DNA of 64,000 nucleotides, from NCBI GenBank assembly GCA_965153355.1, contig OZ231126.1:5580001-5644000 (forward strand), read 5' to 3'. Below the pieces are notes generated by a model. That model was not told the origin of the DNA and searched no databases. It saw nothing but the letters and a program-made list of their open reading frames with translations. Below, piece by piece: positions 1,293 through 57,500 of the stretch (position 1 is its first letter; each line of letters opens with the position of its first letter). The position numbers and the translations under genes were made by a program. The DNA is from Flaccisagitta enflata (taxonomy: Eukaryota).

Positions 1293-2432
1293 TTAGTCTT
1301 AAAAGAAAGAGAGAGAGAGAGAGAGAGAGAGAGAGACACACACACACACACACACACACACACACACAAAGACAGACAGAGACAGACAGAGATTTTGTAT
1401 TTTGAAAGTGAAAATCAATTTTGTGAACCATCAACTAAAGGCAGCTTTTTCCCCCACCCACAGATGATTTTGGATTTCTTGGACTGGTGATCTTCATATA
1501 CTATCAGTCTGAATGGACGCAAATCAAGCCAATGTTTATCTCGACATAACCTTTGATTCTTCTACTAATTTCGGCGTTTCATATTGACTTGGATGTTTTC
1601 CATTACATAAATTTCTCCTAAGTTTTAGAAATCATTTGTTTCTTCATAAAATTGGTACAAGTATTGTAAAGAGGGTTAGTGTCAAACATGGTATTATAAA
1701 GAGAATGATAGACAGACTTAGGCTTATAAATAGACATTATCACTTCAGTCAACTTCAAGAGGGCATCATACATAAATGCAGGAATGTTTTTAATAGAATT
1801 GACTGATGTATTAACGGACCACCATTCGCACAGGATGACCCAGTAAATGGTTAAGTGATTAACAAATTCTTTAGATTTGAACCTGAGAATATAAGGAGTG
1901 GGTGGCGCCATACATTGATGAATATAACAGTAATTTACGGTAAGTGCATCACTCGATACAAATGGGGAGTAGGGGGATCTGTTCCATTGCATTAGAAAGG
2001 TCAAACAAAAATCGAGCAAAAGACCGACTAACTGCAAGGCATGGATCTCGATGGCCCAGTAAAACCAACGGGCTGACTGGTGAACCTCCTGGGTGGCCTG
2101 GAAGCAACCAGAAACCACAGCATGTTTGTTTTTTTATTTGATATGAGAGAGAATGACAAAGTCACTGTTTATATGAGTTTTGAGAACTTACCACTTACTT
2201 TCATATCAAAAGGAAAACAAGCATGCTGTTTGAAAATCAGCGGCTACCGTGGGTTTCATTGCTTTTCATTGATTTCTTTCAGGAATTATCAGTGCCAGTG
2301 GACAGGGACTGTCGTAGGCACGAACCTCGGATGTTTTCCGGTGGTGGTGGAGGTTCGAGGCTGCAAGATCTGATTTGGGTTACATCAATGGCAATGGGGT
2401 TGTAGTCTAATGGAAAATTCAAAGTCACCAAC

Positions 2433-54500: not shown

Positions 54501-57500
54501 AAGGCGCAAAGGCCCTGAGGATTCGTGAATTCTAAACCGTGACGTCCCTTGGTGCCGATTCTGGGTTTAAAAGGGGGGGTTGAAAAAAAGGAACGAAATT
54601 TGAACGATGATATTTGATACTTTATGGAGCCTTTTGTGATGTAAAATCACATGCGTTGTCACGCGTGAGATTGGCATGTCTCCTATTGCCACGTCTTCGC
54701 GTTTTTCTTTCGCATCTTTCCTGTAATAAGATCCCTCTTTCGCCTTCTTTTTCTCCGTGATTCTCTTTTATCTCTTTCTGTTCTGAAAAATTACTCATGT
54801 CTGTTGTATGATTGTTCTTCTCTTTACAAGTATAACTTAAAAGCCTGTCTTTTTTACCAGTCTCTCTTTATCAGTCTTCTTGTCTGTCTTTCTCCTTTAT
54901 CGCCTATCTCTTTATCAGCATCTTTAACAGCCTCTCTCTTTATCATCCTTTCAGTTTCAGTATCTCTTTATTAACATTTCTCTTAATCAGCCTTTTATTT
55001 TTAATCGGTCCCTTAAGCGGTCTTCCTCTGCTTTTCTCCAAATATCGTTCTTACTCTTTTCTTGAACCGTCTTTGCTCTTTTTTCCCCTCTCCAATGTCC
55101 CCCGCGTCTTACTTGTACAGAAGATCATCCTCCTCCTCCAATTCGTTGTTGAGCTGCGAGGCGCTTGTGCTTCCGGTGGTTGTGGCGTAGCAATCTGATC
55201 CCGTAGAATGACGTACTCTTCTCCTTGGCCCTCCTCCTCCTCCTACTCTTCCATCATTGGTCACGATAACAGACGGACACTTTCGTTGTCTCAAAGGACT
55301 CGGAGTGGCGCAGGAAGAGACCGCTGCCGCTGCTGCTGATGATGATGAGGCCGAGTGGACGGGAGTCCGATGGGCGCGGACTTTGAAGGGGGAAGCTTGG
55401 ATCTGATGACCGTTGAGTTTGATGGAGAGCATGTGATAGCCGGATTCTTTGGCCGTGTATTTCAGTTCGTACGTGTTCGTCTCCGTCTTTTTAATTTTGC
55501 ACTGTTGAATGACTCGCGTTGATCCTGAAGTGAGATCAGCAAAGGGAGTAAAAATCTGATGTGAGATAAGATTTATTCTTCAGCGGAAAACGGGACCAAG
55601 CATCAGTTCATAATGAGACCGCTGCAAGAGCTTAAATGAAGGAGCTACCCACAATAGTCAGGAAGATTTTTAGTTGCAACAATGTTTGATTTTTAGGTTG
55701 AAGAAAAAATAGAAAAACTTCAAGATTGATTTTCCCGTCTGCTTTTGGCTTTGGCTTTCTTATTTCCGCGAAGCGTCCGTGTTAACTGTTTTAATTCTCT
55801 CAAAAATGAGTAAGACGTCAATATTTTGGAGGGAAAAAGAGGGCCTATAACGCGCCGATTAGAATCATCTCCAATGAGACGTTCTCGTTACCAATTTACA
55901 GTTGTGAATTGGCATTTTTAGTTGCGGACACGCAACTCTTTAAGAGGCTGTGTCCGTCGGTCCATCCGTTGGTCGGTCAGCACGAGTCGAAAAGTGGGAA
56001 AACGAACATTTTAGAAGCTTTGTGTGTGTGTGATATTGTGACCCCGCGTCACTTGTTCTTGCTGATATGCATAATCTATTGACAAAAAACCTCTGTTTGT
56101 TATAGAAGGAATCTTACCCGATGACGATATGTGTTTGAGAAGTCCCTCCAGTTTGACTTCTTCCTCTCTCGGTTCCAACTTGGTAATCTCGTCTTCCCGA
56201 CTCGTCACAATTTTTATCTGAACCAAATTTGATCAAAGGAAAAAAGAATAAAGATAGGATGTCTCACTTGATACACCCTACTTCTGACAAGATTCCAAAT
56301 GTTTCTTGGTTTTCTTTCCTGTCTTTCCCCCGTCTGTCCCCTGTCCTCACCAGCGTTTCATATCTGATGACGCATCTCTTGAGTCCCCTATTTCTTCTCC
56401 CTATTCACCAGGATTTTGTTTCCAATGACGCATCTCTGAGTCCCTCTCTCCTCCCTGGCCTCACTCACCAGCGTTTTATTTCTCACAACGCATCTCCTGA
56501 GTCCTTGTCTCTTGTCTCCATTCACGAGAATTTTGTTTCCAATGATGCAACTCTGAGCCTCTCACCCCTCCTCGTTCTCACTCACCAGTTTCATTTCCTA
56601 CAACGCATCCCCCCGAGTCCCTTCCCCCTCCCCATCCTCACCAGTGTTTCATTTCCGACGACGCATCTCCTGAGTCCCTCCCCCCCTCCCCGTCCTCACT
56701 CACCAGTGTTTAATTACACATCTCCTGAGTCCCTCCCCCCATCCCCGTCCTCACTCACCAGCGTTTCATTTCCGACGACGCATCTCCTGAGTCCCTCCCC
56801 CACGGCGACGATGTCCGGGTCTCCGTCCATTTGACTTTTCAGTATTTTTTCCCCGATCGAACCCGAGTCTAATTTCTTTTTCATCTTTTTCAAAAAATCT
56901 CCTTCGTCTCGAAAATCGAGTTTGTCGGCTTCGTTGTTGTTCTTTTTCATGTTGACAACGTCATCGTTGTCGTTGTCGCCACTCAGCGAGCGGTGGAGAT
57001 CCATCTTTTCCAAATCCGACATGATGGCCTTCAATTGCTTGCACATGACCAACACGTCTCGCTGCTGTTCTTGTTTTTGTTGTTCATCGTTTTTGTTGTT
57101 GTCATCCCTGAAAATGGAGGATGATGACGACGAGGATGCGGTCGAAGTTGATTCTCTAGCCAATGACGTTGTAAGATCAAACGCCTCTCGACAAGTCAAC
57201 AGATGAACGAGCGAATCCTCCAGTTGTTTTCTCTGCGCCTCCAAAGTGGAATCTTTGTTGGCTTTGACGGTCACCGCGTCCGAGATCAACTGACTTTTTC
57301 GGCTCTCCGCGACTTTGGAAGTTTCTTCAAAGGCCGCGTGGATTCGTTCTTCTGTTTGTTTAAGGAAGTGTTGAAATTTGTGTAAGTGTTGAAAGGAAAA
57401 GGGCAAAGCCGCGTGTATGTGACTCGCGTCGTGTTAATTAGATTGAGATTAGATTCTAACTCTGACATTCACGAGGGAGCAGAAGGAGAGCAATCCGTGG

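Follow-up and report, generated by a model that had tools for sequence, protein, structure and literature searches.

Genes and splice junctions

The features examined here are exon ends that have been copied, together with their splice sites, into the flanking intron (referred to as echoes) in a 64,000-nt stretch of Flaccisagitta enflata DNA (contig OZ231126.1, positions 5,580,001 to 5,644,000). This stretch is the window, and all counts given below have this single 64-kb window as their scope. It is animal nuclear DNA of about 36-47% G+C, very rich in tandem repeats (282 rows with a score of at least 30 in Tandem Repeats Finder, TRF), and the echoes lie in three genes, ADGB, ZNF598 and a TRIM-NHL gene (Table 1). 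A first-pass annotation of the sequence had claimed echoes at 14 sites. That observation is partly confirmed: it is real at 8 of the 14, all of them homology-supported junctions (2433, 7199, 7822, 9230, 12813, 30178, 35352 and 56759), and it belongs to a class that is already known.

Table 1. Genes, echoes and related repeats in the window. Numbers preceded by a sign are positions relative to the junction.
Feature	Coordinates	Strand	Description
ADGB (androglobin)	~12813 down to 2433	minus	12 exons, tblastn with nine homologues
ZNF598	ATG 30036 to 36204	plus	Eight exons; sole match P0001
TRIM-NHL gene	~61265 to 40020	minus	RING, B-box, coiled coil, filamin, six NHL blades; by homology
ADGB spaced copy	2316-2490	minus	68-nt copy (-57 to +10), 107 nt downstream of donor after 2433
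ADGB spaced copy	7074-7248	minus	61-nt copy (-49 to +11), 114 nt downstream of donor after 7199
ADGB tandem duplication	7772-7858	minus	42 nt, two copies, -36 to +5 including GTAAG; donor after 7822
ADGB donor array	9146-9235	minus	18 bp x 4.9 (TRF), 9/18-nt GAG/GTAAGT units; donor after 9230
ADGB acceptor array	12800-12971	minus	45 bp x 3.1 (TRF); exon start 12813, canonical AG, by homology
Array at candidate ADGB exon end (13826)	13764-13826	minus	32 bp x 2 (TRF), extent +1 to +31; exon unverified
Array at candidate first ADGB exon (14968)	14869-14977	minus	45 bp x 2.4 (TRF); exon unverified, without homologue match
ZNF598 exon 1 array	30129-30518	plus	56 bp x 7.0, 87% matches (TRF); authentic donor after 30178
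ZNF598 exon 7 array	35305-35795	plus	82 bp x 6.0, 89% matches (TRF); authentic donor after 35352
Duplication near TRIM-NHL acceptor 46392	46394-46420	minus	13 bp x 2 in pyrimidine tract just upstream of acceptor; zero exon bases
TRIM-NHL intronic minisatellite (50227)	48370-50293	minus	72 bp x 27.2 (TRF); unit with donor-like ATG/GTAAGA
TRIM-NHL array	56346-56801	minus	~8 units of 58 bp, 117-bp higher order (TRF); last exon base 56759

For ADGB, a single exon query returned 173 proteins, nearly all named androglobin; tblastn gave no homologue matches to this gene upstream of 12881. ZNF598 has one protein match only, P0001, with 81% identity in the RING exon. A search of 36000-40200 for the C-terminal two thirds of ZNF598 gave nothing credible, and no sequence like the C-terminal ~870 residues of P0001 is present on the plus strand of 36204-40200, the stretch that lies downstream of ZNF598 exon 8 and ends at the tail of the opposite-strand TRIM-NHL gene.

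Exon ends in the three genes were set by homology and GT/AG and then checked by conceptual splicing, which gave a set of 60 junctions (30 donors and 30 acceptors). In ADGB, nine exons joined at canonical GT-AG boundaries, with the exon-side sites, give a translation that crosses seven junctions and is identical to the protein P0002 in 223 of 224 aligned positions. The contig on which P0002 was predicted has only 1311 bp, while the corresponding ADGB exons span 3.4 kb in the window, and the protein therefore appears to derive from an intron-free, message-like sequence; a search of metagenome contigs for this source contig, with the protein and with a 30-nt word from an exon, gave no match. The only length difference between the conceptual ADGB message and P0002 is a 12-nt microexon at 12047-12036 on the minus strand, GACGCAGTACCT, which codes for DAVP and has AG and GT flanks. 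This protein match suggests that the exon-side donor is the one used in ADGB.

ZNF598 exons 1-4 and 7-8 have in-frame joins and align with P0001; exon 1 was placed by this protein and by its in-frame join to exon 2, and exon 7 (end 35352) joins in frame to 36025. The TRIM-NHL exon ending at 56759 likewise joins in frame to the acceptor at 55555. One polyA RNA run aligned to 29000-37900 contributed 105 reads, nearly all of them partial matches at short repeats, with depth 0 over every ZNF598 exon and zero joints, so that the gene is uncovered and the run is uninformative on its splicing. In both ZNF598 arrays, an exon read through into the first intronic copy hits a stop (open reading frames, ORFs, 29970-30197 and 34963-35430), and use of these decoy donors would therefore be harmful.

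Exon ends copied into introns

For a uniform measure of copying, the best ungapped copy of every 30-nt sequence window at a distance of 10-400 nt was recorded, and a junction was scored as echoed where such a window, ending between -10 and +12 nt of the junction, was matched by an intron-side copy at 24/30 or better. By this measure 6 of the 30 donors and 1 of the 30 acceptors are echoed, and the other 53 junctions score 15-21.

The two ZNF598 arrays are head-to-tail repeats in which the first unit straddles the exon end. At exon 1 the 56-bp unit consists of the last 50 nt of the exon, which belong to the RING finger (...ATRMRVLCKQNYCSICR), and 6 intron nt (GTATAG), and CAG/GT is retained in all six intronic decoys. 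The authentic donor, CAG/GTATAG, is a weaker match to the consensus than four of the six decoys (GTATGT three times and GTGTGT once). Intron 1 runs from 30179 to 30812 (634 nt). With TTTGCAG/GT behind a run rich in pyrimidines, the decoys in this intron also look like recursive splice sites. At exon 7 the 82-bp unit joins the last 48 nt of the exon to 34 intron nt, and the GT is retained in 5/5 decoys. The TRIM-NHL array at 56759 has a unit made of the last 41-42 exon nt (...GEGLRRCVVGNETL) and the donor CTG/GTGAGT, with CTG/GTGAG retained in most copies. A further GT in this array, at 56720 on the minus strand (GAT/GTGTAA), 39 nt into the first echo unit, would give an in-frame extension of 13 residues with the same acceptor, and it is possible that the array has made an alternative donor there.

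The ADGB echoes are more varied. The array at 9230, a junction checked against P0002, includes just 4-6 exon bases in its unit. At 7822 the GT is missing from the second copy, which also contains an insertion of 8 nt. The copies at 7199 and 2433 are not tandem: the former is 51/61 identical and separated from the exon-side copy by an unrelated 53-nt spacer, and the latter is 62/68 identical, retains its GT and lies behind an unrelated 39-nt spacer. Both intronic copies were also matched by tblastn, at 7143-7084 and 2398-2336 respectively, and both spacers are unlike the sequence that follows the second copy, with scores within the shuffle range. These two echoes are copy-paste rather than tandem duplications. 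At 2433 there is an alternative GT 6 nt further on that is a better fit to the conserved W of the homologues. The single clear acceptor echo, at 12813, scored 25/30 in the scan; its array holds the acceptor and the first ~14 exon nt, with the additional copies further upstream, within the intron.

The view that units of different sites are unrelated and do not form one transposon family was borne out, the sole cross-match among 12 units being an 11-nt donor-like motif and no unit matching outside its own array within the window. Each unit is confined to its own locus and unlike the others, which means that no mobile element is at work. The description of the arrays as decaying into the intron held less well: a rough gradient is present in the TRIM array and none in the two ZNF598 arrays. 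Copies match the exon-side copy at 84-96% identity, and this, with the lack of a gradient at ZNF598, indicates that the arrays are young or homogenised.

Sites not confirmed as echoes

The remaining six claimed sites fall into several kinds. Three are at background, their best exact matches being 12 nt at 8181 (equalled by 8% of complex window positions), 14 nt at 46392 (7%) and 9 nt at 51594 (12%). Two, 13826 and 14968, lie on unverified exons; the phase of the candidate exon ending at 13826 fits the next exon, but a GC donor is required. The sixth, 50227, is without an exon. It was rejected as an exon end because homologues leave no room for an exon between the neighbouring NHL exons, and as a donor because just the phase-1 frame is open and the acceptor at 46392 needs phase 2. 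The 72 bp x 27 array at this position lacks a supported exon as its anchor and is a minisatellite of the ordinary intronic kind.

The same acceptor raises a separate point about the TRIM-NHL gene. The donor after 51594 is phase 0 and 46392 (minus strand) needs phase 2, and no canonical in-frame join of 51594 and 46392 reproduces the homologues. The conflict could stem from an exon that escaped detection, a non-canonical site, a frameshift or decay of the gene.

Frequency of echoes at donors and acceptors

How unusual the donor count is depends on the background to which it is compared. Of the non-exonic positions, 12.2% have a copy within 400 nt on either side (any copy) that matches at 24/30 or better, and inside the introns of the three genes this share is 19.5%. 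The frequency of first copies, that is, of positions without a copy on the other side, is 3.9% in the window and 5.65% in these introns. The first-copy null was preferred because the any-copy frequency counts every copy in an array, while a junction can only be the first copy. In a simulation in which tandem duplications arose neutrally, arrays could reach many copies and exons were constrained, the ratio of junction echoes to the first-copy frequency was 0.94 and their ratio to the coverage was 0.41; with two-copy duplications alone the first ratio was 1.17. The any-copy coverage null (12-19.5%), under which the donors are unremarkable (p = 0.15-0.55), was rejected on the basis of this simulation.

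All p-values in this analysis are nominal and post hoc, given that the window was chosen because the pattern was seen in it and that three of the six donor cases are in one gene within 5.4 kb. Against the first-copy null, all junctions taken together give p = 0.008 (window) or p = 0.052 (introns). Enrichment over this null is nominally present at the donors, with no excess at the acceptors (1/30). The TRF minisatellites were counted separately: 34 loci cover 8090 of the 64000 bp, with periods that sum to 1536 bp, and among all junctions there are 5 hits vs 1.6 expected (p = 0.024). The further claim that most minisatellites sit on splice junctions did not hold, since just 5 of the 34 loci straddle a supported junction. 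The local density of echoes is unusual; we regard the donor excess as suggestive only and as unproven.

Local direct repeats as a whole are several times denser inside the introns at 2433-12813, 30036-36204 and 40020-61265 than outside genes, both for any copy (19.5% vs 3.4%) and for first copies (5.65% vs 2.05%).

Origin of the copies

In our judgment the echoes are probably ordinary DNA-level duplications, frequent, local and neutral, that arose in a duplication-rich region and were tolerated at donors; this is the mechanism that we consider most likely. The explanation starts from what was observed directly, namely the duplications, their positions over junctions, the unrelated units and, in ADGB, the agreement of exon-side splicing with P0002. 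Tandem and near-tandem duplications would arise by slippage, unequal exchange or templated repair, and some of the duplicated pieces would happen to hold an exon end and its donor, of which the exon-side copy would stay functional. The extra copies would fall in the intron and be spliced out with it, and as near-neutral sequence they could persist and expand to arrays. Duplication of an acceptor would set up a competitor upstream of the genuine site and would mostly be purged by selection; we propose that echoes are found mainly at donors because acceptor duplications have for the most part been selected away. Breakpoints are scattered, at 36-57 nt from the junction on the exon side and 5-34 nt on the intron side, and none falls at the exon-intron bond, where a process using the spliceosome's own cleavage sites should leave them. 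Their position off the splice site therefore favours ordinary DNA-level duplication. The first-pass annotation had offered two alternatives. Survival of frequent duplications that leave the exon-side site intact fits the repeat density, the donor and acceptor counts and the exon-side sites that P0002 matches in ADGB. Splicing- or transcription-coupled targeting of junctions is unsupported by the anatomy, with no breakpoint at a splice site, although a nominal 3.5-5-fold donor excess remains. The window does not show a new mechanism.

Several results weigh against tolerated neutral duplication as the whole account. The simulated ratio of 0.94 backs the first-copy null as the right one, and against that null the 6/30 echoed donors exceed both the 3.9% of the window (p = 0.0009) and the 5.65% of the introns (p = 0.006). 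The TRF count points the same way, with four donors straddling arrays vs 0.8 expected (p = 0.009). The donor-acceptor contrast alone, which selection against duplicated acceptors would predict, is not significant (Fisher p = 0.10). Additionally, simple slippage is no explanation for the 61-68-nt copies at 2433 and 7199, which lie behind unrelated spacers. Finally, first-donor use, suggested for ADGB by a protein match, is inferred for ZNF598 and TRIM-NHL.

Some of these results would be expected if donors were mutational hot spots, at which transcription- or splicing-linked breaks (R-loops, or stalled complexes near 5' splice sites) were followed by templated repair that copied the exon end and the donor. 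Such a process would explain the nominal excess, and the echoes at 2433 and 7199 do look like a copy-paste of the exon tail and 10-11 intron nt placed 39-53 nt downstream, with similar geometry in both cases; the higher first-copy density in the introns of the three genes than outside genes is also in its favour. We nevertheless consider it unlikely, since the test was post hoc on one window picked for the pattern, the splice site itself is free of breakpoints, the cases differ in unit size and in exon share, 29 of the 34 minisatellite loci are off supported junctions, and half of the donor cases come from a few kilobases of a single gene. A role for selection seems somewhat less probable again. 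In that case rows of U1 small nuclear ribonucleoprotein (snRNP) sites would be kept because they strengthen a weak donor, suppress premature polyadenylation or serve recursive splicing, which would agree with the retention of AG/GT in nearly all decoys, with the authentic ZNF598 exon-1 donor that fits the consensus worse than most of its decoys, and with the 9230 array, which is almost wholly made of GAG/GTAAGT units. However, intact GTs are expected of young neutral copies that are 84-96% identical, and the 7822 decoy is already without its GT. It is improbable, in our view, that in this species donors are true hot spots for copy-paste duplication or that rows of decoys are favoured by selection.

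The arrays or their copy numbers could also be artefacts of the assembly on which the analysis is based. We consider this very improbable, as the copies differ by 4-16% and show higher-order structure (56/112, 58/117 and 82/162) that artefactual duplication would not produce, and as three genes with unrelated units are affected.

Relation to known splice-site repeats

Repeats of this type have been described before, in contrast to the supposition of the first-pass annotation that they had not, at least as far as single genes are concerned. In several genes the first monomer of a minisatellite spans an exon-intron boundary and the donor is reiterated in the intron, as set out in one report (Borensztajn et al., 2006, PMC1557585). 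The human cases given there are F7 intron 7 (IVS7; 37 bp x 5-9), IFI6 (6-16) intron 2 with 25 pseudo-sites, CBS intron 13, LMNB2 (100 bp x 10-15) and PDGF intron 4 (81 bp x 16-18). The report also states that in F7, LMNB2 and PDGF the most upstream site alone is used, and that the downstream reiterated donors of human F7 are silent though functional, even strengthened pseudo-sites failing to compete (PMC1557585). A genome-wide account of junction-spanning repeats, the other part of the supposition, was not found in the full-text literature, supplements being outside the search; the part of Hamanaka et al. (2023, PMC10078293) that was consulted holds nothing on junction-spanning repeats.

In their anatomy, the confirmed arrays share the structural features of this boundary-spanning minisatellite class. 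As in F7 IVS7, the copies at 30178, 35352, 56759, 9230, 12813 and 7822 (two copies) are arranged head to tail, the authentic splice site and 4-57 nt of the exon are part of the first monomer, and in the ZNF598 and TRIM arrays the donor consensus is reiterated in downstream monomers. Use of the most upstream site is suggested by the ADGB protein evidence, a support that is limited to ADGB. ZNF598 exon 1, with an authentic donor weaker than its decoys, reproduces the situation studied in F7. There are differences as well. At 2433 and 7199 the copy is not tandem and lies behind a spacer. The units in the window are mostly exon sequence (36-57 nt) vs 4 nt in F7, and 6 of 30 donors in one 64-kb window are affected vs a handful of scattered human genes.

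Two other known systems come close. GYNGYN and NAGNAG sites lie 3-12 nt apart, are both used and give subtle isoforms. Such short-distance tandem splice sites are said to have been treated by Bortfeldt et al. in 2008. They share with the echoes the presence of several equivalent splice sites close together, but the copies in the window are spaced by 18-117 nt and, if used, would mostly disrupt the reading frame. Intron gain by tandem AG/GT duplication was reportedly studied by Hellsten et al. in 2011. A model of intron gain by tandem duplication of an AG/GT proto-splice site is discussed by Lehmann et al. (2010, PMC2891723). As in that model, a DNA-level tandem duplication carries a splice-site motif in the window and its AG/GT copies could define new sites; there, however, the duplication is inside an exon and the new intron has the length of the unit, whereas here all copies lie within one pre-existing longer intron (634 nt vs a 56-nt unit at ZNF598 exon 1). 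Intron gain by AG/GT duplication was rejected as an explanation, the introns being far longer than the units.

Implications for splice-site choice

In a region of frequent local duplication, as the window shows, boundary-spanning repeats of the kind described in a few human genes can be common. Were the density of 6 in 30 donors to hold genome-wide, this animal would be a source of many natural counterparts of the F7 intron-7 model for 5' splice-site choice, some of them with decoys that match the consensus better than the authentic site, and one could see from it how frequently material for alternative donors or new exon extensions arises. If donors were in addition hot spots for duplication, or if decoys were kept by selection, about a fifth of donors genome-wide would be followed by near-identical decoys. 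Such decoys would mark the intron architecture of the whole lineage and would supply thousands of natural experiments on a spliceosome choosing the first of many equal sites.

Other features of the window

On the plus strand, the ORF at 27013-27381 has a Pfam match to MTP18 (mitochondrial fission process protein) with E = 1.3e-07, above the curated cut-off, which places a fourth gene between ADGB and ZNF598. Another plus-strand ORF, at 3-1289 (429 residues, open at the window start), gave a weak match to Ribonuc_2-5A (KEN) that is below threshold (E = 0.0016, 19 bits vs a cut-off of 23.3). Two different TRIM-NHL introns contain near-identical 1-kb arrays with a unit of ~303 bp, at 44443-45441 and 52727-53733, which are probably carried by one repeat family. 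Adjoining the second of these is the ORF 52320-52439, residues 1-40 of which match scores of short proteins at 70-90% identity, a pattern that suggests a dispersed element.

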